Origin: an uncultured Verrucomicrobiae bacterium
GTDB taxonomy: Bacteria > Verrucomicrobiota > Verrucomicrobiia > Chthoniobacterales > UBA10450
Length of the DNA stretch: 64,000 nucleotides
Direction: 5' to 3'
Assembly: GCA_963834385.1 (NCBI GenBank)
Contig: CAWIBO010000002.1
Location: 800,001 to 864,000 of the forward strand
The notes under the pieces were generated by a model. The model did no database searches. It was not told where the DNA came from and saw only the letters and a program-made list of their open reading frames with translations. A program made the position numbers and the translations under genes. This document shows, piece by piece, positions 1,454 through 56,337 of this stretch (position 1 is its first letter; each line of letters opens with the position of its first letter).

Positions 1454-4351
1454 ATGCCAGCCGAAACTATCAAGATCAGTGGGGCGCGCCAGCACAATCT
1501 GAAGAACATCAGCGTGGAGATCCCGCGCGCCCAGCTGGTGGTGATCACCGGCCTGAGCGGTTCCGGGAAGTCGTCCCTGGCCTTCGACACCCTCTATGCC
1601 GAGGGGCAACGGCGCTACGTGGAAAGCCTTTCCGCCTATGCCCGGCAATTCCTCGATAAGATGGAAAAGCCGGATGTCGATTTCATCGAGGGTCTTTCCC
1701 CCGCCATTGCCATCGAGCAGCGCAGTGCCGGCGCCAATCCGCGCTCGACCATCGCCACGACCACGGAGATTTACGATTACCTCCGCATCCTCTTCTCTGC
1801 GGCCGGCCAGCCCCATGATCCCGCCACGGGCGCGCCGGTTCATCGCCAGAGCGCCCAGCAGATCGTCGACCAGATCCTGGATTACCCGGCCGAGACCCGC
1901 ATCGTTCTTCTGGCTCCGCTCGTGCAAAACCAGGCTGGCGAATTCCGCGACGTTATCGAGAAGGCCAGGCGCGAAGGATTTGTTCGTCTCCGGATCGACG
2001 GCGAGATCCTGGAGCTCGGCCAGCCGGAGCCGATCCGCCTCGCCAAATCCAGCCGGCACACCATCGAGGCCGTGGTCGACCGTCTGGTCGTGCGTGAAGG
2101 CATCCGCACGCGGCTGGCCGATTCGGTGGAAACGGCCTTGAAATGGGGCGAACGCCGCCTGCTTGTCCTCCGCCAGCCCCGGGCCGCCGAGACGTGGGAA
2201 GAGCTGCGCTATTCCACCGACTACAGCGCCAACGGGACCGATTTCTCCCTTGGCGAACTGACCCCGCGCCATTTTTCCTTTAATAGCCATCTCGGCGCCT
2301 GCCCCGCCTGTCACGGCCTCGGGACCCAGCTCGTCTGTGACGCGGAACTGATGGTGCCTGATCCGGAGAAATCGCTCGCCGAGGGCGCCATCCTGCCCTG
2401 GCGCCGCGGCACCCGGCGCATGCAGGCTTATTATCGCCAGCTCCAGGGCGCGCTGGTGAAGCATTTCCGCGTCGATGAGGAGACGCCCTTCGAAAAGCTC
2501 CCGGCCGATTTTCGCGAGGCCCTCTACTTCGGGACCGGTGACCGCGCCATCGAGATGAACATGGGGGGCAACGGGAAGGCCGGCCGGTCGCTCAAGCCGT
2601 TCGAGGGGCTCGTTCCCCAGATGCAGCGGCTTTACGAGGAAACAGAGAGCGAGTTCACCCGCAACCGGATTCGCGCCTTCATGAACCGCGTTCCCTGCCA
2701 GGTCTGCCATGGAGCCAGGCTCAAGCCGGAGATTCTCGCCGTCACCGTGAGCGAGACGGATGGGAACGAGATTAACATTCATCAGTTCAGCCAGATGACG
2801 ATTGAGCAGGCCGCGCAGTTCGTGGGGCGGCTTCGGCTGAGCGCCACGCAACGCCTCATCGTCCACGAGGTGGTGCGCGAAATCGCCTCCCGCCTCGGGT
2901 TCCTCGTCGAGGTGGGGCTTGGTTATCTCTCGCTCGATCGGGAGAGCGGCACTCTCTCCGGGGGCGAAGCCCAGCGCATCCGGCTGGCCTCCCAGATCGG
3001 GTCCGGGCTCGCCGGCGTTCTTTACGTGCTCGACGAACCGAGCATCGGTCTGCACCAGCGCGACAACGCGCGCCTGATCGGCACGCTCCGCCGCCTGCGC
3101 GATCTCGGGAACTCGGTCATGGTGGTGGAACACGACGAGGAAACGATCCGGGCGGCCGATCATATCATCGATCTCGGTCCCGGCGCCGGCCCGCGCGGCG
3201 GTGAACTGGTCGCCCAGGGCACGCTGGCCGAGGTGATGAAGGCGAAAAATTCGCCCACGGCGGACTATCTTTCCGGGCGCGCCCGCATTGCCATCCCCCG
3301 CCAGCGCGTCCGCCCCGCCCGCTCGGCGCAGGCGGCGGCGCGCAGCACCGAGGCCTCCGGCTGGCTCACCGTCACCGGCGCCCGCGAGTTCAATCTCAAG
3401 GAGATTGATGTGATGTTTCCGCTCGGCTGTTTCACCTGTGTGACCGGCGTCTCCGGCAGCGGCAAATCGACGCTGGTCGACGACATCCTGCGCCGCGCCC
3501 TTTTCCGCCACTTTTACAACTCGAAGGAGAAACCGGGTGCCTTCCGTTCCTTGATCGGCCTGGAACAGATCGACAAGGCCATCGTGATCGACCAGAGCGC
3601 CATTGGACGGACCCCGCGCTCGAACCCGATCACCTACACCGGAGCCTTCACCCCGATCCGCGAGCTTTTCAGCCAGTTGCCGGCCGCGCGGGTGCGGGGT
3701 TACGACGCCGGCCGTTTCAGTTTCAACGTCAAGGGTGGCCGCTGTGAGAACTGCGAAGGGGGCGGTCTGATCAAGATCGAGATGCATTTTCTCCCGGATG
3801 TCTATGTGGAGTGCGAGGTCTGCCGCGGACAGCGTTACAACCGGGAGACCCTCGAGATCACTTACAAAGGGAAGAATATCGCCGATGTGCTGGCCCTCAC
3901 GGTGGACGAGGCCGCGCGCTTTTTTCGCAATGTGCCCGCCGTGGCCGACCGGCTCGACGCGCTCCTCGATGTCGGTCTTGGCTATCTTCAGCTCGGCCAG
4001 GCCGGCACCACCCTCTCCGGCGGCGAAGCCCAGCGCATCAAACTCGCGACCGAGCTGGCCAAGAAAGCCACCGGCCGCACGCTCTATATCCTCGACGAGC
4101 CCACCACGGGCCTGCATTTTGCCGATATCGAGCGGCTCTTGCGCGTGCTCATGAAATTGCGCGACGCCGGCAACACGCTCGTGGTCATTGAGCACAACCT
4201 CGAAATGATCAAATGCGCCGACTGGATCATCGATCTCGGCCCGGAAGGGGGCTCGGGCGGCGGGCGCATTGTCGGGCAGGGCACCCCGGAGGAAATCGCC
4301 GCGATTTCCGGGAGTTACACCGGCCGTTACCTGCGGCCGCTGCTGCAATAA
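1454..4351 (+). CDS. uvrA: Excinuclease ABC subunit A
   Basis: GARQHNLKN, two Walker A motifs ([16 protein letters not shown]), LSGGEAQRI twice, CxxC zinc fingers. Confidence 0.98.
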
Positions 4352-4353
4352 AG

Positions 4354-6771
4354 GTGAGAACTCTTTTTCTCGTCGTTCTCTTCACGGGCGCGCCCGCTCT
4401 TTCCCAGGCGGCCGACGATCTCGCCCGGGCCATCGCGCCCCTCAGGGAAGGGGTTCCCGAAGTCGCCGTCGCCCGGTTGGAAGAGCTCTTGAGCAAACCG
4501 GGGACCGACCGCGCCGCCATCCTCGTGCGACTGGCCGAGGCCCATACCGCCGCCGGCCGCCCGCAGGAAGCGCTGCCGCTCCTGGCTGATCCCCTCCTGC
4601 GCAACAATCCGGAGGCCAGCTTCGGCAAAGCGCAGGCTTTGGCCGCGCTTGGCCGCTGGTCGGAGTCGGCCCAGGCTTATGCCGCCGTGCTCCCGTCGAA
4701 AAATCCGACGCTTTCCGCCCGCGCCCGCTTCGGGCTGGCCGAGGCGGAGCGCGCCTTGGGCCGGAGCGATGCCGCTCTCTCGAATTATCGTGCGCTGCTT
4801 GATGACCCTGTCCTCGGCACCGAGGCCCGTTTCCGCTCCGTGGACCTTCTCCTCCAAAAAAATAATGTGGCGGGAGCCACCACGACCCTTGAGGCGGTGG
4901 AGGCGAAAACACCCGCAGAACGCAAGGCCCGCCGGTTTTGGCGGGGCCGCGTCGCCGCGGCCGACGGCAACAAGGCGCGCGCCATCGCTTCCTTTCGCGC
5001 CGTCCTCCGGAAACCGGAGGGAGCCAGTCATGAATTGATCCTGGCTGCGCTCCACGCGCTGGCCGGGACGCAGAGTCCGGCCGACGCGGCGGAAACTCTG
5101 GAAGCCTATCTCGATTCGCACCCCGCCGATCGCGCCCTTCCCGAGTTGTTCGCCCGCCTCGAGACAATCTATCAGGGCACCCGCAAGCCGTGGCGAACCG
5201 AGTTTCGCCGCTGGATTCGTGATCCGGCACAGCCGCGGCGCGCTTTCGCGCAATGGTATCAGGCCCGGGCCGAACTTAAGGCGGGGCGCCCGGCCGAGGC
5301 AGCCGCCCTTTTCCGACAGATGCAACGCGAAGGATTCAGGCACCCCGCCCTGGCGGTGGCGTATCTCGGGGCCGCCCGCCTGCAGGCTGCGCAGGGCCAG
5401 CCCGCCGCGGCGCTCGAGTTGCTCGAGGCCGCGGCCGGTCTCTCGCCGGAACCCGCTTTCCGCCATGAAATCGAATGGCTGCGCGCCGCCACCATTTATC
5501 AGGCCGGTGATTTCGCCGGTGCCGCGGAAGCCTTCGCCGGCGTCGCCGCCGCCGGGCGCGACCGGGCCGAGGCCGCTCGTTTCAATTCCGCCCTGTCGTG
5601 GCTGCAAGCCGACGCGCCGGAAAAATTCCGGGAGGCTTATCGCCGGGTCGCGAACGAGAAGGACGCAAAAGCAGGCGACCTCCTTCTGGAAGAAGGCCTT
5701 TCGCTGGCGGCCAAAAACACGGCGAAGGCCGAGGAGGCGCTGCGCCGGTTCACCCGCGATCATCCCGATCACGCCCGCATCGATGAGGCCTGGCTGGCCC
5801 TGGCGGAACTCGCTTTCCATCGGCAGCCGCCCGGGATCAACGAGGCGCGCCAGCTCCTTAAACGGCTCGACCCGGCCCGGTCCGGCCCGCGCGTCCGCGA
5901 AGACGCCGCCTTTCTTCGGGTTTGGCTGGAAGAGGCGCGCCCCGAAGCTTCGGAGAACGCCGTCCGGGCGCGGGCCCTGGATTTCCTGCGCGAGTTTCCT
6001 GAATCGCCCCGCGCACCTGAGGTCCGGATGAAACTGGCCGAGCTGTATTGGGACCAGCAGGATTTCGCGAATGCCCAGACGCAGTTTGAAACCCTGGCGC
6101 GCCGGCATCCCCAGCATCCGTTGGCGGAAAAGGCGCTCTTTTTTGCGGGGCAATCAGCCCGTTCCACCATGGGCCCGGATGCACTCGACCGGGCCCTGTC
6201 CCTGTTCAATGAAGTGGCGGCCCGCCAGGGGGAGCTGCAATGGACCGCGCGCAACGAACAGGCCATGATCGAGCGGAAGCTGGGGAAGAATGACGAAGCC
6301 CTCCTGCTTTACGAGCAGGTTCTGGCGCAGAGCGGGAAGGCCGCCGATCGCCGCGAGGCGCTCACCGGCAGCGGGGATGTCCATTTTGAACGCGGCACGG
6401 CCAATCCGGAGGATTACCGGCGCGCCCTCCAATTTTATGAGCGGCTCATCGCAGACACGCAGGCCGGCTCGCACTGGCGAAACCAGGCGCTCTACAAAAA
6501 GGCGCTGGCCCTGGACAAGCTGGGCGAGACCGCGGCCGCGCTGGCAGCCTACTACGAAGTGCTGGAACAACCCCTGCGCGCCGAGCGCGCCCCGGAACTC
6601 TTCTGGTATTACAAGGCCGGGTTTGATGCCGCGCAGCTCCTCGAACGCCAGGAGAAATGGGAATCGGCTGCGGCCATCTACGAGAAACTGGTCGGGGCCG
6701 CCGGCCCGCGCAGCGCGGAGGCTGCCGCCCGCCTGAAGAGGCTGCGCCTCGAGCATTTTCTCTGGCCCTGA
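4354..6771 (+). CDS. Exported tetratricopeptide-repeat protein
   Basis: GTG start 2 nt after the uvrA stop, signal-peptide-like N-terminus, TPR-like helices throughout. Confidence 0.8.
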   Translation: MRTLFLVVLFTGAPALSQAADDLARAIAPLREGVPEVAVARLEELLSKPGTDRAAILVRLAEAHTAAGRPQEALPLLADPLLRNNPEASFGKAQALAALGRWSESAQAYAAVLPSKNPTLSARARFGLAEAERALGRSDAALSNYRALLDDPVLGTEARFRSVDLLLQKNNVAGATTTLEAVEAKTPAERKARRFWRGRVAAADGNKARAIASFRAVLRKPEGASHELILAALHALAGTQSPADAAETLEAYLDSHPADRALPELFARLETIYQGTRKPWRTEFRRWIRDPAQPRRAFAQWYQARAELKAGRPAEAAALFRQMQREGFRHPALAVAYLGAARLQAAQGQPAAALELLEAAAGLSPEPAFRHEIEWLRAATIYQAGDFAGAAEAFAGVAAAGRDRAEAARFNSALSWLQADAPEKFREAYRRVANEKDAKAGDLLLEEGLSLAAKNTAKAEEALRRFTRDHPDHARIDEAWLALAELAFHRQPPGINEARQLLKRLDPARSGPRVREDAAFLRVWLEEARPEASENAVRARALDFLREFPESPRAPEVRMKLAELYWDQQDFANAQTQFETLARRHPQHPLAEKALFFAGQSARSTMGPDALDRALSLFNEVAARQGELQWTARNEQAMIERKLGKNDEALLLYEQVLAQSGKAADRREALTGSGDVHFERGTANPEDYRRALQFYERLIADTQAGSHWRNQALYKKALALDKLGETAAALAAYYEVLEQPLRAERAPELFWYYKAGFDAAQLLERQEKWESAAAIYEKLVGAAGPRSAEAAARLKRLRLEHFLWP

Positions 6772-8232: not shown

Positions 8233-10317
8233 CTACTCGGCGGCGGCGCGCAGTGCGCCCACCCGGGCGAGGGCGAGCCGCGCCTCCTGCGTCCGGCCCA
8301 TCCGTTCCAGGATATCGGAAAGAATCAGGAGCTGACGCGGCTGATCCGGCTGCCGGGAAACGGCACGTTCCTGGAGACGACGGGCCTCCTCGAGCCGGTT
8401 CTGCCGCACTTTCATCCCCGCCATCAAATTCAAGGCCTGCACCTCGTGAATATCAAGGCGGCTGGCGTGCCGGAGTGCCTTCTCCGCCGCCGGAATATCA
8501 TCCTGTTCCGCGTAGACTCGACCCAGCGCGACCGCCGCTCCATAGTGCCACCAGTTTTTCCGGGCATACTCTTCCACCAGGCGGAGCGCCGCGTCGGGCC
8601 CCTCGGTCATCCGCACCACTTCGGCCTGAAAGCTGACCAGTTCCCAGATGCCGGGATAATCATGACGCGCCCGCTCGAGCACCGGAAGGGCGGCCCGCGG
8701 ATTCTCCTTGAAGCGAAGGTGAGCCAGGTTTAGCGCGGCAATCCAGGTGCGCGGATAATCCTTGCGCGCCTGTTCCGCCGCCTGGGCGGACTCGGCAAAA
8801 ATTTTCTCCGCCTCAGCCCGCTTGCCCTGGCGAAAAAGAACGTCAGCCAGGTTATTGCGCGCGATCGGATAACCGGGCAGAAGCTGGAGCACCTCCCGGT
8901 ACATTTTCTCGGCCCGGCCATACTCGCCGCGGGCGGCATAGATCTGGGCCAGGTTGACGGCCACGCGGGTGCTGCGGCCACCGGCGGCCAGTGTTCGCTG
9001 GTAAAATGTCTCCGGCGTGACCCAGTCGGTGCTGCGCACATAACTGCGCGCGCCGAATCCGGTCGCTGCGACCAGCGCCACCACCAGGGCGTGCCGGTGA
9101 TAACGCACCGGCAAATCGAGCGCGGCTCCGGCCAGGAAAAGAAGGAACCCGACACTGGGAAGATAAAGCCAGTGTTCCGCCACGCTGGCATTCAGATCGA
9201 CCACGTTCGAGATCGGGAAAAACGCGGCCAGAAACCAGACGACACCAAGGACGCGCAGGGAATGTCCGCGTCCGCGGCGGGCGCAGCCCCAGGCCGCGAG
9301 GCCGGCGCAGAGCAAACCGCCGAGCGAGAGATATTCGCTCCGGACCGAGCCGCGCCAGCTTTGGTGTCCCCGGTAGTTGGCCGGATCAACCACGGTGCGT
9401 TCCATGTGAAGATTGGCCGGGTAGAGCATGAGGCGGCCGTAATCGCCGAGCGCGCGGAAGACGAGCACGGCGCGGGTGGGCGCGGTCCAGCCGTGCGAAG
9501 CATTCTCGGCCGAACGGCTGCCGGGGAGTTGCCGGAGGCCAACGTAAGTTCCGAGCAGGAGAAGAGCGCAGGCCAAAACGGCCAGGCGGGTGCGCCATGA
9601 AATCTGCGGGCGCAAGAAGCAGGTGTGCACCGCGAAGATGATCACCCAAACGCAGGCGATCTCACGCGAGCAAAGGGCGAGGAGACCGCAGAGAAAGGCG
9701 GCCAGGTAACCCGCCAGGCGAAGTTCCCCACGGGCGCACGCGTTCGCCCGGAGAACGATGAGCCAGGCGGCGCTGCCAAAGAGAAAGGAAAGGCTGTCCG
9801 CCCGGCCCGAGATGTAATCGACCGCGGCGCTGTGCACTGGATGCACCAGCCAGAGCAGCGCGACCAGGAAGGCGACCAGGTCCGGCCCCGGGCCGGCCCC
9901 GGGCTCCGCCCCTGCGGGAACCAGCAGCTTCCGGAGCAGGGCGAAGAGGAGCAGGCCGCTGCCAAGGTGGAGCAGGACGTTGGTCAGGTGGAAACCGAAG
10001 GTGTTCGTGTTCCAGAGAAAGTAGTCGAGGACAAAGGAAGCGTTCTGCACCGGACGATAATGTCCGGAGAAGGAATCGAGGAAGAGATGATGGCGAAAGG
10101 CTTCCAGGAGCAGAAGCGGGCTCTTCATGAAGGGGTTGTCGCGGGCCAGATACTGGTCGTCCCAGAGCAGCTCGCCGGAGAGGGCGGGCAGGCGCACGAC
10201 AAAACCGCAGAAGGCGAGGAGAAGGCAGCGGCCCCAGAAGCTGCCGATGAGCCAGCGCAGGCCGGCCCGGAGGTCACGGGCGGATTTCGGGGAGGCGGAG
10301 GCGGGGTTGAGCGCCAT
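8233..10317 (-). CDS. TMTC-like GT-C membrane glycosyltransferase with C-terminal TPRs
   Basis: LLWDD, HYRPV, FHLTNVLLH, HPVHSAAVDYISGRAD and AEHWLYLPS motifs in a multi-TM domain, followed by TPRs. Confidence 0.85.
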   Translation of the reverse strand: MALNPASASPKSARDLRAGLRWLIGSFWGRCLLLAFCGFVVRLPALSGELLWDDQYLARDNPFMKSPLLLLEAFRHHLFLDSFSGHYRPVQNASFVLDYFLWNTNTFGFHLTNVLLHLGSGLLLFALLRKLLVPAGAEPGAGPGPDLVAFLVALLWLVHPVHSAAVDYISGRADSLSFLFGSAAWLIVLRANACARGELRLAGYLAAFLCGLLALCSREIACVWVIIFAVHTCFLRPQISWRTRLAVLACALLLLGTYVGLRQLPGSRSAENASHGWTAPTRAVLVFRALGDYGRLMLYPANLHMERTVVDPANYRGHQSWRGSVRSEYLSLGGLLCAGLAAWGCARRGRGHSLRVLGVVWFLAAFFPISNVVDLNASVAEHWLYLPSVGFLLFLAGAALDLPVRYHRHALVVALVAATGFGARSYVRSTDWVTPETFYQRTLAAGGRSTRVAVNLAQIYAARGEYGRAEKMYREVLQLLPGYPIARNNLADVLFRQGKRAEAEKIFAESAQAAEQARKDYPRTWIAALNLAHLRFKENPRAALPVLERARHDYPGIWELVSFQAEVVRMTEGPDAALRLVEEYARKNWWHYGAAVALGRVYAEQDDIPAAEKALRHASRLDIHEVQALNLMAGMKVRQNRLEEARRLQERAVSRQPDQPRQLLILSDILERMGRTQEARLALARVGALRAAAE

Positions 10318-10340
10318 GGGGTTGGAGAAGCTGCTAAACA

Positions 10341-10376
10341 GGAGAGCGTCCTTCCGCAGGCGAAAGGACGCTCCCC
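10341..10376 (-). terminator. Terminator-like hairpin between the last pilin and the TMTC-like gene
   Basis: GAGCGTCCTT/AAGGACGCTC stem followed by only a weak CCTGTTT tail on the minus strand. Confidence 0.6.
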
Positions 10377-10397
10377 ATTGTTCAGTTTACGAATCCC

Positions 10398-10799
10398 TTA
10401 CGGGGCGTAAGGCGACCAGAAACCGGTGTCGGCCACGTCGGAGAGAGCGGCGAAGGTATTCGCCGGCACTTTCGGAATGGAATCGACCGTCTGGTCTCCG
10501 TAGGTCTCGCCGAAGAGATCAGCTCCCGTCGCGAAGAGGACGCTGTCCTTCTTGACGTAGTTGGTCCAGTCGACCACGGCCACGGTGTCCCCGGTCTTTT
10601 TCCCGGTCTCGATGGCGTATTGGTCGACCGCGGAATCAATCATGCGCAGATCGTTCAGGACCTTGGAGGCCTGGGAACGTTTGCGGGCACGAAGAAACCC
10701 GGGCACCGCGATCGCCGCGAGCAGGGCGATGATCGCCACGACGATCATGATTTCCACCAGCGTAAAGCCGGCGCGTTTTTTGTTCAGTTTAGTCAACAT
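10398..10799 (-). CDS. Type IV pilin-like protein (divergent copy C)
   Basis: Class III signal KKRAG|FTLVEIMIVVAIIALLAAIAVP; 133 aa. Confidence 0.93.
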   Translation of the reverse strand: MLTKLNKKRAGFTLVEIMIVVAIIALLAAIAVPGFLRARKRSQASKVLNDLRMIDSAVDQYAIETGKKTGDTVAVVDWTNYVKKDSVLFATGADLFGETYGDQTVDSIPKVPANTFAALSDVADTGFWSPYAP

Positions 10800-10865
10800 A
10801 GTGCGTTTTCTTTCTTGTTAGTTGTATTCCTGAGGTGCGAGCCGCCGGCTTTGTCTGTTCCTGTT

Positions 10866-10922
10866 CTCACAACTCACTCCCTGCCGGCGGAGCCCGCCGG
10901 CAGGCGTGTGAATCGTCAGTTC
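10866..10922 (-). repeat. 57-bp inter-pilin stem-loop element, copy 2
   Basis: Matches 11395..11451 at 55 of 57 positions; core stem CCTGCCGGCGG/CCGCCGGCAGG. Confidence 0.9.
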
Positions 10923-11327
10923 TTAGTGATGACCGTAGGGCGAGAAGAAGTCGGTGCCGGCCACGTCGGAAAGCGCGTTCCAGGCGCCCGCCGGAGCTTT
11001 CGGCAGCGAATCGACGCTCTGCGCGCCGTAGCTGTTTCCGAAGATGTCCTGGCCCGTCTCGTAAAGGGTCGTCCCCTTCTTCAGGTAGTTGGTCCAGTCA
11101 CCCACGGCCACGGTCGTGCCGGTGGTCTTGTTGGTCTCGATCGCATACTGGTCGACCGCGGAGTCGATCAAACGGAGATCGTTCAGGATACGGCTGGCCT
11201 GCGAACGCTTACGGGCCCGGAGGAAACCGGGGACCGCGATCGCTGCGAGCAGCGCGATGATCGCCACAACGATCATGATTTCAACGAGGGTGAAGCCCCC
11301 GCGCTTTTTGTTGAACTTGTTTAACAT
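10923..11327 (-). CDS. Type IV pilin-like protein (copy B)
   Basis: MLNKFNKKRGG|FTLVEIM; 134 aa; 5 aa differences from copy A. Confidence 0.93.
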   Translation of the reverse strand: MLNKFNKKRGGFTLVEIMIVVAIIALLAAIAVPGFLRARKRSQASRILNDLRLIDSAVDQYAIETNKTTGTTVAVGDWTNYLKKGTTLYETGQDIFGNSYGAQSVDSLPKAPAGAWNALSDVAGTDFFSPYGHH

Positions 11328-11394
11328 CTTCTTGGTCTTTCTAGGTTTGTTTGATGGCAGAGAAGCAAGTCCCCGAAGTTTTCCTCTTCGTGGG

Positions 11395-11451
11395 CTCACA
11401 ACTCACTCCCTGCCGGCGGAGCCCGCCGACAGGCGTGTGAATCGTCAGCTC
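11395..11451 (-). repeat. 57-bp inter-pilin stem-loop element, copy 1
   Basis: Immediately follows the pilin A stop codon; near-identical to 10866..10922. Confidence 0.9.
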
Positions 11452-11856
11452 TTAGAGGTGACCGTAGGGCGAGAAGAAGTCGGTGCCGGCCACGTCGGAG
11501 AGCGCGTTCCAGGCGCCCGCCGGAGCTTTCGGCAGCGAATCGACGCTCTGCGCGCCATAGCTGTTCCCGAAGAGGTCTTTGCCCGTCTCGTAGAGGGATG
11601 TCCCCTTCTTCAGGTAGTTGGTCCAGTCACCCACGGCGACCGTGTTGCCGGTGGTCTTGTTGGTCTCGATCGCATACTGGTCGACTGCGGAGTCGATCAG
11701 ACGGAGATCGTTCAGGATACGGCTGGCCTGCGAGCGTTTGCGGGCCCGGAGGAAACCGGGGACCGCGATCGCTGCGAGCAGCGCGATGATCGCCACAACG
11801 ATCATGATTTCAACGAGGGTGAAGCCCCCGCGCTTTTTGTTAAACTTGTTTAACAT
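11452..11856 (-). CDS. Type IV pilin-like protein (copy A, promoter-proximal)
   Basis: MLNKFNKKRGG|FTLVEIM; 134 aa. Confidence 0.93.
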   Translation of the reverse strand: MLNKFNKKRGGFTLVEIMIVVAIIALLAAIAVPGFLRARKRSQASRILNDLRLIDSAVDQYAIETNKTTGNTVAVGDWTNYLKKGTSLYETGKDLFGNSYGAQSVDSLPKAPAGAWNALSDVAGTDFFSPYGHL

Positions 11857-11936
11857 TTTGATCTTACTTTCTGTATGTTTGCTTGGTTTGTTTGATTGCG
11901 ACCCGCGATACCCATCACGGATGTGGAGGTGTAGGA

Positions 11937-11952
11937 AGCAGGCGTGATGCCA
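11937..11952 (-). promoter_or_regulatory. Candidate sigma54 (-24/-12) promoter of the pilin array
   Basis: Minus strand TGGCATCACGCCTGCT = GG-N10-GC, 80 nt before the pilin A start. Confidence 0.7.
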
Positions 11953-12071
11953 AAGCGTCGGGTGATTACAATTTCTAGAAAACGCGTAAACCTCTGCGCC
12001 AGCGGGCCCCGGCTCGCGTCGTCCTTCCGTTTCCCTCGCCCCAGCCCTTTCCCCGTCTCCCCGTTTTCCCG

Positions 12072-13917
12072 GTGAATTTCCTCCGCCGTTTTTCCCGGCA
12101 TTCCCCCGGGCTCCCCCTTTATCTCTTTGCCGCCGTGCTGTGCCTGCGGCTTTTCGTCCTTTTGCGACTCACCGCCTCGCCCTTCCTCCTTCCACAAGGG
12201 GGCGACATGTTCTTCTACAACGAGTGGGCGCTCCGCATCGTCCGGGGCGCCTGGACCGATCATCTCGCTTTTTACGGGCTGCCCGGCTACCCCTGGCTCC
12301 TCGCCGGCCTTTATGGGCTCTTCGGTTATTCCCCTTTCCTGCCCGCCTTTCTCCAAGCCTGTCTCGAGGCGGGGACCGCAGTGCTCATCCTGAAACTGGC
12401 AGAAATCGTTTTCGCTCGAGAAGGTTCCGACCTCTTCCCGGCCCGCGTAATCGGGACCAGCGCCGCGGTCGGGTGGGCCTTCTTCGTTCCTGCCCAGGTC
12501 TACGCGGCCATCCTCATGCCCACCGCCTGGCTGGTCTTCGTCTTTTGGTTCGTGGTTTGGGCGGTTCTCCGGCGCCCGTATGCTCCCGGCTGGCCCGGCG
12601 CGGCCGCGCTCGGCCTGCTGATTGGTCTCACCGCCACCGGCGTCGCCACCATTCTTTTCCTTCTTCCGCTTCTCTTCGCCGCGCTTTTCTTCCGCGCGCG
12701 CCCGGGTGCCCGGGCGTGGCGACCGCTCGCGGCGGCCCTGGCCCTTGCGGCCGGGCTTCTCCTCGGCACCTCACCGGCCTGGGCCCACAATTATTTCGTG
12801 GCGCGCGACCCGGTTTTCCTTTCCGCGCACAGCGGGATCAATTTCTGGATCGGCAACAATCCGGAGGCCAGCGGTTACCCGCGGTTCCCGCCCGGTCTCC
12901 GCGCCGGCCAGGCGGCCATGCTGCAGGACTCGATCAGCGCCGCCGAGACCGCGGCGGGACGTCCTCTCCGGCGTTCGGAAGTTTCACGCTACTGGTCGGC
13001 CAGGGCCAGGGAATACATCCAGGCCGAGCCGGGGGCGTTTCTGCGGCTGCTCGGGCGCAAGATCCTCAATTTCTGGAGCGCCTTTCAATATGATGATCTT
13101 AGCATCATCACCAGTTTCCGGGAGAACGGCATCGTTTGGCCGGGACCGGCCTTTGGCCTTGTGGCCATCCTGGCCTGGCCCGGAATGGTTCATGGCCCTG
13201 CGGGCGTTCCCGCGTTCGCGCTGGATCATGGCCGCGGTTCTTTTGCACCTCGCGGCGCTCCTCCCGGTCTTCGTGACCGAACGCTACCGGCTCGCCGCCG
13301 TGCCCGGCCTGCTGCTTTTCGCCGCGGCCGGGCTTTTTCTTCTTTGGCAGAGCATGGTGCAGCGCTCCTGGGCGCGCGCGGCGGTTTATCTTGGCGTTCT
13401 CTTTGCCGCTACCGCGCTCCTGGCGCGTGCGCCCCGCGAGCCTTCGCTCTGGGCGCTCGACGCCTATAATTCCGGATGGCAGGCGCTCGCGGCCGGCAAC
13501 CTTCCCCTTGCGGAAACGAAACTGGAACGCGCCCTCGCCTATGTGCCCGACAACGCGGAATCAAACTTTGCCCTCGGCAATCTCCGGCATGCCCAGGGAA
13601 ACCGCGCCGCCGCGCGCGCCCGCTACCAGGAAACCCTCTTGCTTGAGCCCCGGCACAAAGGCGCGCTGAACAACCTTGGGCTGCTTGCCCTTGATGAAAA
13701 CAGACCCGGCGAAGCCGCGGACTTTTTCGAGCAGGCCCTGGCGGTCGCTCCGCTGGAACCCAAAAGCCATTACCTGCTCGCACAGGCCCGCCTCGCGCTC
13801 GGAGATTTCGACGGGGCCCGGGCCGCGCTTACGCGGGCGCAGGCGCTGCGATCGCTCCCTGAATTCGAGACGCTCGCGCGCGAGATCGACGAACGATCAG
13901 GGAACGGCCGGCGCTGA
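12072..13917 (+). CDS. GT-C (PMT/ArnT-like) membrane glycosyltransferase with C-terminal TPRs; one +1 frameshift near 13187
   Basis: GDMFFYNEWA, PGYP, NFWIGNNPEASG, ERYRL, then TPRs. ORFs 12072..13469 and 12622..13917 join if one G is removed from ATGGTTC. Confidence 0.8.
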
Positions 13918-15435
13918 GACCGGGGCTTGGTCCAGCTTCCCGCCCTTGCGCGCCAGCACCACGAAGTGCCCCTCGGGCGTGGCGCGGATGAAGCGGTAAT
14001 GGGCGTTGCACCAAAGGACGAATGGATGGTCGGGCGGAGTAAAGGCGCGGGCCTTGGCCTCCAGAATGATCACTTCCGGACGCGCGCGTTGCAGTTCGCG
14101 TAGCAGACGCCCGGTGAGCGGACGAATCAGCGGTCCCAGCAGGACTGGATAATTGAAAATCACGCCGGAAGGCGGGGTGCGCCGGGTTTCAAAGTAAAAC
14201 CCGGTTTCGTTGCCCCATTCATAAAGGAACGCGTCCTCCGGGAGGGACGCGTCCAGTTGCCGCGCGAGATCCCGCGCCTCGTTGAAAATGTTGCCATACT
14301 TGAGCCGGGACCATTCGCGGGCGGGCAGGCGATAGAGGGGCGCTTCCAGGAAGAGCAGGGCGACAAGCAGCCCGGCCGTGGCTAGATGGCGCGGACCGAC
14401 GGGAAACTTTCCCCGGCCCGGGAGACCGGCCACGGCCAGGGCGGCCCCGATGGCCAGGAGCGGCAGCCAGAGCTGAAAATAATGAGGAAAGAACTTACCG
14501 GTCGCGGCCACGGCCAGATAGGTCGAACCCGCCCAGCTCAGGAGAAGAAGACCGCTGCGAAATTCGCGCCGGATAAAGGCGGCGACGAGACCAAGCAAAC
14601 TGAAGGCGCCGAGCAGGCCGAGGAGAAGCAAGGCGCCCAGCGGCAGCTCGGCCCGCCAGGCCTGCTGGATGTTGTGCAGGATATTGCCCGAATAAGCCCG
14701 GTTATAGGTAAAGACCGCCTCGATAAACGGAGCAAGACGCCCGGTGATCGCGAAATAGCCGAAGATGAAGATCCAGGCGAGCAGCCCGGCTGACCCAATC
14801 ACGATCAGGCCGAGGAGGAAACGCCCCGGCCGCCGGGGGAACGACAGGAGGCACCAGGTAATCCCCATGAGCACGGCATGGATGACCACGATCTGCTTGT
14901 AGAGCGAGGCGATGGCGAAAAGGGCCCCGACCGCGAAAAACCGGCGCCAGCCGGGCGGATGAGCGTGCCGGCTCACCATGAGGGCAAAGGCGAAGGTCAG
15001 GAAACCGTTGAGGAAAAGTTCCGTGTTGGGCTGGTTGCCTTCGAGCCAAAGATCACCGCTGGCCAGGGTCCAGATCGCGGCGGCCAGGAGCCCCGCGCTC
15101 CGGCTGCCGGAAGCCGAGGCCGCGGCGCGGTAACAGCCGAGGAGGACGATGACGCCGAAGCCGACATTGAGCAGGTAGATGGAAGCTGGTCCGTAGCTGG
15201 AGAAGATCTCCGCCGCGGCAAAAGTGGCGTGCAGAATGGGCGGCTTATGGTCCCAAAGATCGGTGTAAAGCTGGCGGCCCTGGAGTAGCTCATGCGCGAT
15301 CACCGCATAGGTGGTGATGTCGCGTTCGAGCGCTTCGCCATAGGTATGAGCGCGCAGCGCGGCCAGTACCGCCGCCAGCGCGAGCAGGGCCACCAGCAGG
15401 CTGCGCTCCCGCTGCGCCCATTCCCACACCCGCAC
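13897..15435 (-). CDS. GT-C (ArnT/PMT-like) membrane glycosyltransferase
   Basis: ERDITTYA..LYTDLWDHKPP loop, NTELF, FFPHYF, many TM helices. Confidence 0.8.
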   Translation of the reverse strand: MRVWEWAQRERSLLVALLALAAVLAALRAHTYGEALERDITTYAVIAHELLQGRQLYTDLWDHKPPILHATFAAAEIFSSYGPASIYLLNVGFGVIVLLGCYRAAASASGSRSAGLLAAAIWTLASGDLWLEGNQPNTELFLNGFLTFAFALMVSRHAHPPGWRRFFAVGALFAIASLYKQIVVIHAVLMGITWCLLSFPRRPGRFLLGLIVIGSAGLLAWIFIFGYFAITGRLAPFIEAVFTYNRAYSGNILHNIQQAWRAELPLGALLLLGLLGAFSLLGLVAAFIRREFRSGLLLLSWAGSTYLAVAATGKFFPHYFQLWLPLLAIGAALAVAGLPGRGKFPVGPRHLATAGLLVALLFLEAPLYRLPAREWSRLKYGNIFNEARDLARQLDASLPEDAFLYEWGNETGFYFETRRTPPSGVIFNYPVLLGPLIRPLTGRLLRELQRARPEVIILEAKARAFTPPDHPFVLWCNAHYRFIRATPEGHFVVLARKGGKLDQAPVSAPAVP

Positions 15436-15457
15436 GGAAAAGATGGAAGGAGCGGCT

Positions 15458-16219
15458 TTAATGCGCTCCAGCCTGCGCCGGGCGCGTGTTCGTCACCAGC
15501 CAATTTTCGCGGGCGCGCACCCGGGAAAAATCGCGCAGCATGTGGAAACCCATCCGCGCGATCTTGCGAAAGTTGATGCTGTTTTCGCCGCCCTGGCGCG
15601 CGCGGAAATGGATCGGGTGATGGATCCAGCGCAGGCGCGGTTGCTGCGAGAGGGCGTAGGTCACGGCGATGTTTTGAATATCGAAATCGGGCGGAACCAC
15701 CTCGAGCGCGCGGGCCAGGACCGTTCCCCGCATCAGGCGATAAGGCACGTTGGCGTCGCGCATCCAGGTGCCGGTGGCGAGAAAAAGCAGGGCACGACAT
15801 CCGCGTGAGACGATCAACCGGCCCAGGCCGTCGCCGCGCGACCGGCGAAAGCCGAAAACGCAATCGCTGTCCTGCCGGGCTTCCCACATGTCCGCAAAAT
15901 ACGCCGGGTCGCATTGCCCGTCGGAGTCGAGCTGGAAGATCCATTTTGCGCCCGCGGCCACTGCCAGGTCGTAGCCTTGGCGGCAAGTGCGGCCATGGCC
16001 GGAGTTGGATTTGTGCACCACCTGCAGACGCGCGCCGAACCGTGCCGCCAGTTCGTCCAGGACCGGCCCGGTCGCATCACGCGAGCCATCGTTCAGGGTA
16101 ATGAGCTGGAAATCCGGGCAGGCCTTTCCCAGACATTCCATCCACTCGGTAACAACGGAGGCAATGTTGGCCTCCTCGTTGTAGACGGGCATGACCGCGA
16201 CCAGCCGGGGTGAATTCAT
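15458..16219 (-). CDS. GT2 polyprenol-phosphate glycosyltransferase (DPM1-like)
   Basis: MPVYNEE, NDGSRDAT, NSGHG, DSDGQ motifs. Confidence 0.88.
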   Translation of the reverse strand: MNSPRLVAVMPVYNEEANIASVVTEWMECLGKACPDFQLITLNDGSRDATGPVLDELAARFGARLQVVHKSNSGHGRTCRQGYDLAVAAGAKWIFQLDSDGQCDPAYFADMWEARQDSDCVFGFRRSRGDGLGRLIVSRGCRALLFLATGTWMRDANVPYRLMRGTVLARALEVVPPDFDIQNIAVTYALSQQPRLRWIHHPIHFRARQGGENSINFRKIARMGFHMLRDFSRVRARENWLVTNTRPAQAGAH

Positions 16220-16304
16220 CCCCCACGGCAGAGCAGGAACTTTGCCGCCGCGGGACGCAGGCGCGCCATTGTTTTTCCCGCCCGCCTGCGACAGGCTAGC
16301 GGGC

Positions 16305-17567
16305 ATGTCACCCGTCTCCTCGCGTTCCCTGACCGCCGCCCTGGCCCTGGTTCTCGTTCTTGGGTTTTTTCTGCGATTGCCTCCCGGTCTTTTCCACAGC
16401 CCCGACGCGCCCCTGTCCGCAATCGAGTTTCTGCATCCCGAGCCGAAGTGGGACCGGCTTGGCTTCGATGAAGGCCTTTACCGCAATTATGTCGAGAGCG
16501 TGATCAAGGTCGGGCTCGGGAACTATCCTTCGATCGTCGATCGTTACATCGAGGTGCAGAAGACCCTCACCGGCTCCATCCTGCCGCCGCTGCGCTTCCT
16601 TTACATCGGCACCTCCTATCTCTGGCATTGTCTCTTCGGCACCGATGCCATGGCGTCACTGAATGCGGTCGCTTCGTTCTTCAGCATGCTTACCCTGCTG
16701 CTCTCGACCGTTTTCGCGTGGCGGCTCAAGGGCGAACGCTTTGCCCTCGGGATCGCCCTGCTCGTGGCGGTGGCGCCCACCCAGCTCCACATGTCGCAGC
16801 ATGCCCTGGTGGACGGTTTCTTCACCTTCTGGGCCCTGCTCGTTCTCTGGCTTCTCTGGGAAAATCTGCAGAACCCCCGCCGGCTCCCGTTCCTCGCGGG
16901 CTACACCGTGGCGCTTTCCCTGCTCGTCCTGACCAAGGAAAACTCATTCTTTGTCTTTGTTGCGCTCTGCGTCTTGCTCCTGACCAATCGCTGGCTTCGT
17001 TTCGGCACCGTCACACGCGAGCTGCTCGTCGCCACTTTCCTCGGTCCCCTCCTCGGCGTGGTCATCCTCGTTTTCCTCGCCGGCGGCCTGGAGACCATGC
17101 GCGCCAGCTACACCCTTTCCGTCGGCAAAAATTATCACCTGCAATACGCCCTCCTCACCGGAGACGGTCCCTGGCACCGTTACCTCGTTGATCTCATGCT
17201 GGTCAGTCCGGTCGTTGTCCTCCTGGCCGTGGCCGCGATCTTCCGGCTGCGGCGCGAGCAAAAGCCGGAGCTTTATCTCACCGTCTTCGTCGCCACCAGC
17301 TACCTGATCATGTGCAACCTGCGTTACGCCATGAACCTGCGTTATGCCAACATGTGGGATTTCCCTCTGCGCCTTCTTGCCCTGGGCCTGATCGCCGCGC
17401 TTTGTTCCGCCCTGCCGCGCGGCCGCGTCGTCGCCCTGGTCGTCGCAGTCCTTGGTCTCGCGGCGCTCGAGTTCCGCCAGTACACCATTCTGTTCGTCGA
17501 TTATCCGCTCTACGAACTCGTCACCGAAGGATTGCTCCGGGCCCAGAACATCCTCAAAACACGCTGA
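16305..17567 (+). CDS. Probable GT-C membrane glycosyltransferase
   Basis: GFDEGLY acidic motif after TM1, LTKE motif, polytopic membrane protein. Confidence 0.7.
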   Translation: MSPVSSRSLTAALALVLVLGFFLRLPPGLFHSPDAPLSAIEFLHPEPKWDRLGFDEGLYRNYVESVIKVGLGNYPSIVDRYIEVQKTLTGSILPPLRFLYIGTSYLWHCLFGTDAMASLNAVASFFSMLTLLLSTVFAWRLKGERFALGIALLVAVAPTQLHMSQHALVDGFFTFWALLVLWLLWENLQNPRRLPFLAGYTVALSLLVLTKENSFFVFVALCVLLLTNRWLRFGTVTRELLVATFLGPLLGVVILVFLAGGLETMRASYTLSVGKNYHLQYALLTGDGPWHRYLVDLMLVSPVVVLLAVAAIFRLRREQKPELYLTVFVATSYLIMCNLRYAMNLRYANMWDFPLRLLALGLIAALCSALPRGRVVALVVAVLGLAALEFRQYTILFVDYPLYELVTEGLLRAQNILKTR

Positions 17568-17575
17568 CGCCGCCT

Positions 17576-18679
17576 CTATTTCAACGCGGGCGCGGCGAGT
17601 CCGCGCTGCGTGACGAGGTAGACGGCGAAACTCCCGAGCCAGTGGCCCCCCTCGTAGTGTTCGCCCGTCACCGCCGCCAGTCCGGCCCGGCGATGGGCCG
17701 CCGCCGCCGTCGCGAGAGCCTGGCGCCGCGGATCTTCCGCGGGCAGGCCTGCACGTATGCCCTCCAGCATCCAGGCCCGGCTGAGATTCAGGCCGTCCAG
17801 ATGCGCCAGTTTCGGGTCGCTCGGATCGGGCGAGACCGCCACCGGCAGCCATTCCTTTTCGTCGCCCGCCGGGATTTGCGGAAGGAACTCGCGCAGCCAC
17901 TTTGCAAACTCCGCCGGGGTGAGGACGCGCCGCACTGCATCGGCTTCCCCGAGGCATGGGGAAAGGAAATCTTCCCCCGAGGGTTCGTAAGAGAGGGGAC
18001 AGTTCCGGTCGGCCAGGTAGAAATCCCTGATCCGGCCAGTCAACAGGGTGACCAGGCCGGCATCCTCCCGGCTTCGGGCGTAATCCAGCAGCAGGCCAAG
18101 GGCGAAGGCCGTCTGGTTATGTTCGCCGATCCGGACCGGGTGCGAAAGCTTCGGCAGCCATTGTGTGAGACGTTCGTGCGCGGCTTTTTCCAAAGGCTGC
18201 AGACTGGCCAGGAGTCGCCGGCCCAGCGGATCGTCCCATTCGCGGAGTTCCGCGCTCAACTGCATCAGCCAGGCAAGGCCGTAGGGGCGTTCAAAACTGC
18301 TCCGGCCGGCGCCACGCAGGTAGGCGGCTTCCTTCTCCAGATTCTCTTTGCTCAGACTTCGCGCCAGGGCAGCGCGCGCCTCCTCGGCAAAAGGCGCGTC
18401 CGGGAAGGTGCGAACCAGACGCACCAAAAGCCAGTGCCCATGCACCGAGGAATGCCAGTCGTAGCAGCCGTAGAACGCCGGGGTCAGTTCGCGCGGCGGC
18501 CGTGCGTCCGCGTCGCCTTGGAGGACATGGCTGATCTTGTTTGGATATTCCTTCGCCACGCAATCGAGCGCGAGCCGGGCAAAGCGTTCCCCTGCCGCGA
18601 CATCAAACCCGGCGGGTTCGGCGGCCTGGAGGCGGGCGAGCAGGCAGAAGATAGGGAAAAGCAGGGCAACCCGTTTCAT
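17576..18679 (-). CDS. Exported DUF2891-family protein
   Basis: EYPNK, FYGCYDWHSSVHGHW, FERPYGLAW, HLDGLNLSRAW, YEGGHWLGSFA. Confidence 0.85.
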   Translation of the reverse strand: MKRVALLFPIFCLLARLQAAEPAGFDVAAGERFARLALDCVAKEYPNKISHVLQGDADARPPRELTPAFYGCYDWHSSVHGHWLLVRLVRTFPDAPFAEEARAALARSLSKENLEKEAAYLRGAGRSSFERPYGLAWLMQLSAELREWDDPLGRRLLASLQPLEKAAHERLTQWLPKLSHPVRIGEHNQTAFALGLLLDYARSREDAGLVTLLTGRIRDFYLADRNCPLSYEPSGEDFLSPCLGEADAVRRVLTPAEFAKWLREFLPQIPAGDEKEWLPVAVSPDPSDPKLAHLDGLNLSRAWMLEGIRAGLPAEDPRRQALATAAAAHRRAGLAAVTGEHYEGGHWLGSFAVYLVTQRGLAAPALK

Positions 18680-18751
18680 TCCCGACTCATACGCCCAAAA
18701 CCGCCCTCTGGCACGCGCGGGGCCGGGTCGTGACGTTCTGCCGGTTCCTGT

Positions 18752-20290
18752 TCAGGCCACCTCGGCCAGGACGCGTTCGCGGAGCGAGGCGCTGCTGGCG
18801 ATCGTTTCCCGCAGCAGATGGCGGGACTCCGGCAACGGACGGACGCGCAGGCAGATCTGGTAGGCGAAGAGCGACCGCGAAAATCGGATCAGGAGACGAT
18901 TCAGAAAGAGAAGCGCGCGGCTGGCGCGATGGTGGCCAAGCGCGAGCGGGAACGGCGCCGGGACGCCGCGGGTCTCGAGCACTTCGTAGCCGGCCTGTTC
19001 CACGAGCGCGCGGAGCGAGCGGAAAGTGAAGAGGCGCCGGTGACCCAGCCCGAGAATGCCTTTGCGGCTGTAGTTGAACTGGCCGCAGGCGAGCATCCCT
19101 CGGGTGACAAAGAAGGCGACGTTGGCCGCGGTCAGGATCACCTCAGGCCGGCGGCCCTCCATGCGCCGGCGCATTTCGTCCATGAAACTTTCCGGATCGT
19201 GCATGTGCTCGATCAGGTCCATCAGCAGGATGTGATCGTAGCGCCCCAGGTCGCGGGGGAGGCGCGGGGCCGGGACGGAAGGGGCGGCCCCCTCGCCCGC
19301 AATCTCGTTCGCGGCAAAGTCGATGGCCTCCACCTTGCAAAGACGCTCTCTCAGCTCCGCCGCGACATTGGCGTGCCCGAGCCCGAGCTGCAGCACGTGT
19401 CGGCCGGCCGGGCAGGACTCCACCGCGAAAGTTTGCGAGGAGCAAAAGCCGAGCTTGTCGCTGTGCGGGCCGGTGGAGGGATTGACGTCAAATTTCCGGT
19501 CGTAAAAGAGATGAATCCCGCAAAGGCGCGCCTTGACCGTGGAACGGAAGACATCCCAGGCATATTTCATCCCGTTGACGTGACAAACCTCGTCGCCATA
19601 AAAGGTCGGGATCGGGAGTTCCGCGATCCGGAGCTTGCGCAGGACGAACTGGATGATGATCTCCGTGTCGAAATGGAAATCGCCGGTGTTCCGCTCGAAC
19701 GGGACCTCCCTGAGGGCGCGGGTGGTGTAAAGGCGGTAGCCGGTATGGAACTCCGAGAGCCGGGTCCCGAGCATCCGGTTCTGGAAAGCGGTCAGGATCT
19801 GGTTGCCGATCCACTTGTAGGCCGGCATCCCGCCCGCCCGGGCGGCCCGCTTGTCGATCATGCGCGAACCAAAGACCGCATCGGCCTGGTCGTGCAGGAG
19901 CGGCGGGAGCAGGTCCGGGAGTTTTTCCGGGGCATACTGGCCGTCCCCGTGCACCAGGGCGACGATATCGAAGCCGTGATCGATGGCGTAGCGATAACCG
20001 AGTTTCTGGTTGCCGCCGTAGCCCTGGTTTGAGGGGGTGCGCAGGACCGTGATCTTGCAGGCAGCGTGGCGCTCCTGAAACCGAAGTCCGCGGGAGAAAG
20101 TGCTGTCCCGCGAGGAATCGTCGATGATCAGGACCTCGACATTCTCCTGCTGCAGCGAGGCCGGGATGCGCCGGAGAACCTGTTCGATGGTGCTCTCGGC
20201 GTTATAGGCGACGATGAAGATAAGCAGGCGTTTTCCGCGAAGATCCAGGCGATCAGCGGCGGCCGCGGGGTTGAGCAGCGGGTGGCGCAT
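18752..20290 (-). CDS. Bifunctional GT2 glycosyltransferase / class I SAM-methyltransferase-like protein
   Basis: N-terminal VAYNAE, IDDSSRD, NQGYGGNQK, HGDGQY; C-terminal VLQLGLG...MDLIEHMHDP. Confidence 0.85.
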   Translation of the reverse strand: MRHPLLNPAAAADRLDLRGKRLLIFIVAYNAESTIEQVLRRIPASLQQENVEVLIIDDSSRDSTFSRGLRFQERHAACKITVLRTPSNQGYGGNQKLGYRYAIDHGFDIVALVHGDGQYAPEKLPDLLPPLLHDQADAVFGSRMIDKRAARAGGMPAYKWIGNQILTAFQNRMLGTRLSEFHTGYRLYTTRALREVPFERNTGDFHFDTEIIIQFVLRKLRIAELPIPTFYGDEVCHVNGMKYAWDVFRSTVKARLCGIHLFYDRKFDVNPSTGPHSDKLGFCSSQTFAVESCPAGRHVLQLGLGHANVAAELRERLCKVEAIDFAANEIAGEGAAPSVPAPRLPRDLGRYDHILLMDLIEHMHDPESFMDEMRRRMEGRRPEVILTAANVAFFVTRGMLACGQFNYSRKGILGLGHRRLFTFRSLRALVEQAGYEVLETRGVPAPFPLALGHHRASRALLFLNRLLIRFSRSLFAYQICLRVRPLPESRHLLRETIASSASLRERVLAEVA

Positions 20291-27597: not shown

Positions 27598-27618
27598 GGG
27601 TGTCGGGAGGGCTGAAAA

Positions 27619-27671
27619 TGTGGATAACTGCCTGGGATCTGCGCACAACCCCGCCAACAACCTGTGGACAA
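27619..27671 (-). promoter_or_regulatory. DnaA boxes upstream of nrdJ
   Basis: Perfect TTATCCACA at 27619-27627 and 1-mismatch TTGTCCACA at 27663-27671, both on the minus strand. Confidence 0.65.
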
Positions 27672-27678
27672 CGTCCAA

Positions 27679-56329: not shown

Positions 56330-56337
56330 CGGGAACG

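Follow-up and report, generated by a model that had tools for sequence, protein, structure and literature searches.

Predicted GT-C glycosyltransferases around a type IV pilin array: a candidate pilin O-glycosylation island in Chthoniobacterales

Do the membrane enzymes encoded around a type IV pilin array put sugars on those pilins? The question is raised by a block of genes at positions 8233-20290 of the window, i.e., the whole stretch of 64,000 nucleotides analysed here (G000:C2:800001-864000), from the 2.9 Mb, 89.6% complete genome of an uncultured bacterium of the order Chthoniobacterales. Sequence, structure models and analogy with known systems make it probable that the block is a pilin O-glycosylation island of the major type IV pilus (T4P) locus in this order. 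Two proteins that combine transmembrane (TM) helices with tetratricopeptide repeats (TPR), here called A and B, would likely add sugars to Ser/Thr residues of the pilin on the periplasmic side, and a variable cassette beside them likely supplies the sugar donors and further decoration.

The first-pass annotation of the sequence had described three pilin genes with TM-plus-TPR genes on both sides, two more polytopic genes, a family GT2 glycosyltransferase (GT) and a GT2-methyltransferase fusion. All of these lie where it placed them and in the order it gave, with two corrections: B is not one open frame in this assembly, and a DUF2891 gene, which does not encode a GT, stands within the block.

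8233-10317, minus strand: gene A, TM-plus-TPR protein of 694 aa, separated by 80 bp from the upstream pilins, which share its strand
10398-10799, minus strand: pilin 1, prepilin with a Pfam N_methyl match over the cut-off
10923-11327, minus strand: pilin 2, prepilin with an N_methyl match over the cut-off; its true start is the Met at 11327
11452-11856, minus strand: pilin 3, prepilin with an N_methyl match over the cut-off, first in the array
12072-13917, plus strand: gene B, TM-plus-TPR protein, divergent from the pilins, single copy in the genome
13897-15435, minus strand: gene C, polytopic protein, probable GT-C without TPR
15458-16306, minus strand: gene D, GT2, probably starting at Met30 (about 16219), candidate lipid-phosphate-sugar donor synthase
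16305-17567, plus strand: gene E, polytopic protein, probable GT-C without TPR; the longest open reading frame runs from 16191 and homologs favour Met39
17576-18679, minus strand: DUF2891 gene (PF11199, E 5e-134), not a GT, outside the conserved block
18752-20290, minus strand: gene F, GT2 fused to an S-adenosylmethionine (SAM) methyltransferase, which may synthesise the donor and methylate the sugar

The DUF2891 gene, located between E and F, is present in 0/28 loci of relatives. Among the block proteins, Pfam and NCBIfam searches gave no match to pilus-assembly, Wzy_C, flippase or GtrA families, in agreement with the earlier statement that the locus holds no pilus-assembly, PglL/TfpO-type or flippase gene.

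Linkage of the pilins with A and B

Synteny of pilin and GT-C genes in relatives had been set beforehand as the refutation test of this reading, and the linkage proved to be kept across five families, with loss of the block as a unit in one genus. In 28 loci of the same family (one array per genome, selected by us; genes counted within about 10 kb; the loci of orphan paralogs, L040, L058 and L069, counted apart), B is present in all 28, A in 27, E in 24, F in 12, C in three and D in two; C is usually paired with D. The closest named relatives of A come from metagenome-assembled genomes of Chthoniobacterales/Spartobacteria, one homolog being labelled Candidatus Udaeobacter sp., and no homologs of A were found in plasmids.

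The association extends over the order. In a hand-counted table of 301 genomes, which includes one unpublished genome (G007) and kin that are not independent, B occurs in 108 genomes, the pilin subfamily in 119 and an ortholog of A in 86. B and the pilin occur together in 107 genomes, B alone in one, the pilin alone in 12 and neither in 181, and every genome with an A ortholog has the pilin (86/86). Around the B genes of families f5, f6, f8 and f12 (40 of 64 genomes, chosen for score and flank), a divergent pilin lies 120-473 bp away in 36/40 loci, and A-type, E and F genes are found in 26, 29 and 15 of the 40, respectively; uvrA, ilvC, acd and the gene for an 852-aa TPR protein (TPR852) are near none of these B genes (0/40). 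The A slot of two f6 genomes (L066, L067) is occupied by a TMTC-like gene whose identity to A is just 23%. From metagenomes, the best 80 of 589 B loci were taken, and a divergent pilin lies within 600 bp in 46 of the 50 that have at least 700 bp of upstream DNA. A phylum-wide sample yielded the pilin subfamily at E 1e-28 in 4/351 cases, all of them members of the order; seven distant relatives of A from other phyla (L098-L104) have no prepilin in the DNA examined, and a contig titled Prosthecobacter (L093) carries pilins plus A.

In the genus g10, all four genomes have an empty site in which TPR852/ilvC adjoins acd, i.e., the two flanks of the block meet. Pilin, A and B are lacking in 4/4 genomes, and E, F and the cassette are also missing at the site. 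In a fifth genome (G574), the block is lacking in the 7 kb after TPR852, and no PilT over the cut-off was found. The g10 loci L281-L283 and L285 have kept pilT and lack this pilin subfamily. The TPR852 gene itself (window 4213-6771, plus strand), whose product has a YfiO-like segment, is always paired with uvrA in the family and is retained at the empty site. In L252, L254, L256, L259 and L263 of family f6, pilin, A and a second pilin are followed by a convergent, more distant TMTC-like gene.

A single pilin-GT adjacency could be due to chance, because the genome is rich in GT genes, with 16 PMT_2 matches over the cut-off and 36 GT2 matches genome-wide. The conservation tests argue against such a chance adjacency.

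The variable cassette, located between B and acd, differs in nearly every locus (27 crude arrangements among 28), its repertoire consisting of GT87-like, PMT_2, DUF2079, DUF7657, GT2, methyltransferase, epimerase and acyltransferase genes, and the number of tandem pilins per block is one to four. A cassette that differs between genomes while the pilin next to it is highly conserved would suggest that the soil bacteria carrying the block vary the sugar coat and not the pilin protein. DUF2079 membrane proteins, candidates for further GT-Cs, recur in the block (L043:8610-10535, L056:7326-9290, L061:13154-15370, L064:2850-4724, L034:4158-6143), and the one of L043 is encoded between two pilin copies.

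The pilin array and its control

The three pilins are cleaved between G and FTLVE, leaving a mature chain of 122-123 aa (122 aa in pilin 1), and have no Cys. Pilin 1 is 76% identical to pilin 3, while pilins 2 and 3 share 94.8% DNA identity over 405 nt, and pilin 2 is a recent duplicate of pilin 3. The spacers and the upstream region hold the following elements.

10318-10397, minus strand: hairpin between pilin 1 and A (-38.7 kcal/mol, z -5.2, 0/200 shuffles as good)
10800-10922, minus strand: hairpin between pilin 2 and pilin 1 (z -3.7); a near-identical copy follows pilin 3, duplicated with pilins 2/3
11328-11451, minus strand: hairpin between pilin 3 and pilin 2 (z -4.4)
11938-11952, minus strand: sigma54-type -24/-12 promoter motif, 96 nt upstream of the pilin array

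The sigma54-type motif precedes 39/50 first pilins as against 9/40 later pilins, with a genome background of 0.003 per 260 nt, and is present at 34/36 B-adjacent pilins in the other families. The hairpin before A likely attenuates read-through into this gene, and terminators of such a kind are described after major pilin genes (PMC11841053). We take the array to be the major type IV pilin locus because of this promoter, because T4P machinery is encoded elsewhere in the genome (PilB/PilC-like genes, and several PilT and an Amuc_1098-1102 cluster over the cut-off), and because GspG, the major pseudopilin of the type II secretion system, is a separate gene, also over the cut-off. The prepilins themselves have a class III signal peptide with Glu5. 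A PilT/PilU-family ATPase over the TIGR01420 cut-off, adjoining a response-regulator gene, is encoded in the window 32 kb from the pilin block (52570-53721, minus strand), and a 755-aa protein at G000:C3:242539-244806 consists of two fused PilT domains. A fourth pilin of the same subfamily (G000:C2:525523-525975, 55% identical) lies between pbpC and a thioredoxin-reductase-like gene and has no GT neighbours.

The globular domain of pilin 3 is rich in Ser/Thr. Mature position 58 is Ser or Thr in 44/44 same-family pilins (27 T, 17 S), and a hydroxyl residue is found at position 75 in 98% and at position 96 in 86% of them. S/T58, S/T75 and S/T96 are thus candidate O-glycosylation sites, and their retention could also be structural. 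N-glycosylation of the pilin is unlikely, because sequons are not conserved and no STT3 match was found in the 89.6%-complete genome.

Fold and nearest relatives of the enzymes

Searches with sequence did not reveal what A and B are: Pfam matched their TPRs alone, the membrane domains of the A family matched no GT-C Pfam model (0/17), and searches of PDB sequences with A, its profile and the profile of E gave TPR matches or nothing relevant. The claim that both are GT-C proteins was borne out by structure models, with Z about 18-21 to STT3, Pmt4 and ArnT. The model of A (predicted local distance difference test score, pLDDT, 90.9) has a membrane domain of about 11 helices, of which a strict hydropathy scan gives 7, and a C-terminal TPR. 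Residues 16-448 match STT3 (8age; Z 19.4, root-mean-square deviation (rmsd) 4.9, 335 aligned), Pmt4 (9i5l; Z 19.2, rmsd 4.2, 343 aligned) and ArnT (5f15; Z 17.8, rmsd 4.7, 341 aligned); the matches overall, with AglB among them, have Z 17.8-19.4 over 326-347 residues. For B, an intact ortholog (L031) was modelled (pLDDT 88.2), matching ArnT (5f15; Z 20.7, rmsd 4.0, 309 aligned) and Pmt4 (9i5k; Z 19.3, rmsd 3.5, 332 aligned). These GT-C matches came from a second look (VIA), while Foldseek alone gave TPR matches only among the matches listed. A and B are therefore predicted to have a GT-C fold plus TPR. Several homologs of A carry the JGI name 'protein O-mannosyl-transferase'; in the B family, 5/13 members weakly match PMT_2 and 2/13 a TMEM260-like model, and the atlas neighbours of B have a PMT_2 domain.

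For C and E, the earlier description as GT-C-like stands on weak Pfam matches and motifs, which make them probable GT-Cs on weaker calls than those for A and B with their fold models. C itself has no Pfam match; 17/75 members of its family match PMT_2 (best E 1e-6), invariant acidic loop residues are present, and JGI labels homologs as ArnT-like. E matches PMT at the cut-off (E 8e-5), 17/26 members of its family match PMT (best E 2e-9), and its D93-E94 and K249-E250 are invariant. Acidic residues of the first loop are invariant in the families of A, B, C and E; these four are not close paralogs, because profile-profile comparison among them is weak (probability 1-8%).

D matches PF00535 (E 1e-15), has no TM helix by hydropathy and gave NCBIfam matches including ArnC and PpgS; F matches PF00535 (E 4e-19) and PF13489 (E 1e-11), its best NCBIfam matches being AglJ and dolichyl-phosphate hexose transferase. 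The DPM1-like GT2 proposed for the locus is thus supported as to its domain, and D and F appear nearest to polyprenyl-phosphate sugar synthases, but all these synthase models (AglJ, PpgS, ArnC, dolichyl-phosphate hexose transferase; E 1e-6 to 1e-18) are matched below the cut-off.

The genome has about 7 A-like paralogs but one copy each of B, C and E, and a pilin adjoins none of the other A-like paralogs. The paralogs L109, L108, L107, L110 and L106 lie beside a collagen-repeat protein gene plus GT2, an outer-membrane barrel gene, a GT2 gene, a PRC-barrel protein gene and a Ku gene, respectively. Some TMTC-type A-like paralogs may sit next to their own substrates.

The closest analogue of A is TfpW, the pilin D-arabinofuranosyltransferase of Pseudomonas aeruginosa group IV (Pa5196/PA7), which is described as a 646-aa GT-C with 11 predicted TM helices, a DDx motif, a Pro-rich motif and TPR at the C-terminus; its gene comes immediately after pilA, and the addition of D-arabinofuranose (D-Araf) at pilin Thr64/Thr66 depends on it (bioRxiv 10.1101/2020.04.19.049825). 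The comparison, made by this published description and by motifs and not by sequence alignment, fits A in position, architecture and the DD motif, as the first-pass annotation had suggested. A follows a pilin directly on the same strand (here and in 27/28 same-family loci), it has the predicted GT-C fold, helix number and TPR of such an enzyme, D53-D54 would correspond to DDx in the first extracytoplasmic loop, and Y293-x6-P300 to the first half of the Pro-rich motif Y-x6-P-F-x7-P in loop 4; both motifs are invariant in 106 sequences. The pilin here also resembles that of the TfpW system in carrying Ser/Thr in the loop that follows its long helix. In contrast to the TfpW system, A is without the F-x7-P half of the Pro-rich motif, the block has a second, divergent GT-C-plus-TPR gene (B) that is even more tightly linked, it has 1-4 tandem pilins, and extra GT-Cs, in-locus GT2s and a variable cassette are present. 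No TfpW model was among the NCBIfam matches of the block proteins. As for the arabinose pathway, the 89.6%-complete genome gave a DPPR-synthase-like partial match below the cut-off at C2:412406 and no match to an ALO/DprE1-type domain; DprE2 was not searched. A is not filed as TfpW, because the full Pro-rich motif is absent, the arabinose pathway is not evident and the likeness is one of motifs and build. The gene with the partial match (G000:C2:411845-412975, L111) encodes a HAD-UbiA fusion resembling DPPR synthase, in a cluster with an exosortase, a UDP-galactopyranose mutase and a Wzy_C gene.

The second likeness of A is to the TMTC proteins. The animal O-mannosyltransferases TMTC1-4 form family GT105. 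Like these enzymes as they are described in PMC7801869, A is an 11-TM GT-C plus TPR, and it has motifs in the same order, compared by order and not by TMTC alignment: D53-D54, H86-Y87-R88-P89 (HYRP, against SHKSYRP), D174 for the Asp of extracytoplasmic loop (EL) 2, and R218-E219 for the basic residue plus Glu of EL3 (K read as R). A differs in being bacterial, in having A380-E381-H382-W383 in place of AERV, and in the absence of DW from its loop-4 consensus, and DUF1736 was matched by 0/17 A-family membrane domains at E up to 1. A can hence be called TMTC-like, failing two TMTC motifs and the DUF1736 match. Taken together with its position, we regard A as a candidate pilin-targeting transferase of a TfpW/TMTC-like kind.

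Two other types of systems are comparable in part. The ArnT/ArnC pair resembles the block in that ArnT is the best fold match of B, C and E have similar acidic and basic loop motifs, and D and F weakly match models of polyprenyl-phosphate glycosyltransferases; it differs in that B carries TPR and the genes travel with a pilin, and Pfam and NCBIfam recognised no arn biosynthesis operon in the locus. Substrate-specific O-oligosaccharyltransferases (O-OTases) are described as closely linked to their substrates, and those of TfpO/PilO, TfpM, PglS and PglL that are substrate-specific have their genes beside that of their own pilin (PMC12645811). The Wzy_C-type O-OTases transfer preassembled glycans en bloc, whereas this locus has no match to a Wzy_C domain or a flippase.

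Proposed pathway and rival explanations

We infer every step of the following mechanism, while the genes, the model folds, the linkage with joint loss, and the sigma54-type motif are directly supported. On the cytoplasmic side, F, and D where it is present, would load sugars on undecaprenyl phosphate, and the methyltransferase of F may methylate the sugar. A flippase would move the lipid-linked sugar across the membrane. A and/or B would then recognise the membrane-anchored pilin via TPR and attach the first sugar at one of the candidate sites named above. The GT-Cs without TPR (E as the constant one; C, GT87-like, DUF2079 and others as variable ones) would lengthen the glycan or add branches to it, so that pilus coats would be strain-specific. 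This elaborates the sequential lipid-monosaccharide pathway proposed from the sequence at first, which is favoured by the predicted fold of A and B and by the donor synthases nearest to D and F, but not by the scarcity of C and D among the 28 loci and by the four of 40 B genes without a pilin. Likewise, the broader claim of pilin glycosylation agrees with the conserved linkage, while the pilin as acceptor is suggested by linkage and analogy.

A more far-reaching version can be put forward only tentatively: the block could be an order-wide 'pilus serotype' locus of abundant soil Verrucomicrobia, in which two GT-Cs with TPR start the glycans and swappable GT-Cs, methyltransferases and acyltransferases extend them one sugar at a time from lipid-linked monosaccharides outside the cytoplasm. 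The sugar coat is perhaps varied against pilus-binding phages, as in Pseudomonas; in P. aeruginosa, pilin glycosylation is reported to block pilus phages (bioRxiv 10.1101/150227). For the present lineage, the shielding from phages or predators proposed in the first-pass annotation is an analogy with Pseudomonas. If this version were true, a bacterial TMTC-like enzyme would gain a named substrate, and a Gram-negative bacterium would assemble a protein glycan stepwise in the periplasm by several enzymes. In the literature covered, which left out most subscription journals, TfpW was the only GT-C pilin glycosylase found, no paper tied TMTC-like proteins to pilins, and no pilin glycosylation or such a locus was described in Verrucomicrobia. 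What the block adds to the known systems is the second, more tightly linked GT-C plus TPR, the link throughout the order together with a clean empty site, and the hypervariable cassette. Moreover, a small conserved pilin beside its likely enzymes makes the substrate of bacterial TMTC-like GT-C/TPR proteins directly testable by heterologous co-expression.

A number of observations speak against a pilin glycosylation island. Within-family synteny is weak alone, because uvrA (24/28) and ilvC (19/28) are about as syntenic as E; the genomes are related to one another, and the loss in g10 was probably a single event after which pilT was kept. The linkage has gaps in both directions: 4/40 B loci of other families have no nearby prepilin, A-like genes with 41-44% identity stand without a pilin in L087, L089 and L113, and no A/B/C/E neighbour was found at 16/16 orphan pilin paralogs or at the best pilin loci of G038, G047 and G057. 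C and D are rare in relatives. The pathway has missing parts, too, as searches of the 89.6%-complete genome detected neither a GtrA flippase nor a DprE1-type domain (ArnE/F-type flippases were not searched), and three Wzy_C-domain genes over the cut-off elsewhere in the genome could serve the pilin instead. The best fold match of B is a lipid A modifier, ArnT, C homologs are labelled ArnT-like, and A has, besides the incomplete Pro-rich motif, a His in place of the phosphate-binding Arg of the TMTC motif AERV. Finally, B is interrupted in this assembly, where one extra base near 13187-13188 puts it into two frames. Its orthologs have an uninterrupted frame in most relatives, and the frameshift is likely an assembly error, because other genes of the assembly, the pilB-like genes and hrpB, are also split across frames; public contigs leave the spot uncovered, and three public read runs with small shares of this genome contain no read spanning it, and no RNA run was listed as containing the genome. 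The split genes include hrpB (window 54610-56548, minus strand), a pilB-like gene (G000:C2:32284-35298) and some A-like paralogs, and the assembly as a whole seems to carry many indel errors.

These observations can be arranged into other explanations of the block. Pilin glycosylation may be the work of A and/or B only, which would add a single sugar or a short homopolymer in the manner of TfpW; C, D, E, F and the cassette would then act on a different envelope glycan, and their place next to the pilins would be no more than a shared location. The rarity of C and D, the absence of E from 11/40 and of F from 25/40 other-family loci (in the stretch fetched), and the lack of TPR in C and E would be in line with such a division, and TfpW alone is reported to suffice for polymerisation and transfer in PAO1 (bioRxiv 10.1101/2020.04.19.049825). 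We nevertheless hold it to be unlikely, as E stays beside B in 29/40 loci across families with a different housekeeping context and the empty site of g10 lacks E, F and the cassette along with the pilins. Of similarly low probability is that the enzymes modify lipid A or lipopolysaccharide, glycolipids or many periplasmic proteins, so that the pilin would lie in an island of surface variation and would receive any glycan from an unlinked Wzy_C-type OTase. The ArnT likeness of B and C, the many GT-Cs and the three Wzy_C genes of the genome, and the four B genes without a neighbouring pilin point in this direction. Against it stands the near one-to-one co-occurrence of B, head-to-head, with one pilin subfamily in five families, and the TPR of A and B points to a protein acceptor, by comparison with TMTC and TfpW. 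No other A-like paralog lies by a pilin, and some are beside genes for other surface proteins (the collagen-repeat protein and the outer-membrane barrel).

The least probable of the explanations considered, and a very improbable one, is that A and B serve pilus assembly or act as chaperones, built on a GT-C-like scaffold with TPRs and transferring no sugar, like accessory genes of the TfpY type. Accessory genes after pilA need not encode GTs, as described for TfpX, TfpY and TfpZ (PMC11841053), inactive proteins of GT-C fold such as PIG-U are described (PMC7801869), and the His of A at the place of the donor-phosphate-binding Arg would suit an inactive enzyme. However, the catalytic-type DD of A and D43 of B are invariant, and GT2s of donor-synthase type travel with A and B. 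The island for pilin O-glycosylation thus stays our preferred explanation of the locus.

Outside the block, a class II (B12-dependent) ribonucleotide reductase with a TSCPD domain, encoded at window positions 24463-27684 on the minus strand, is ordinary.

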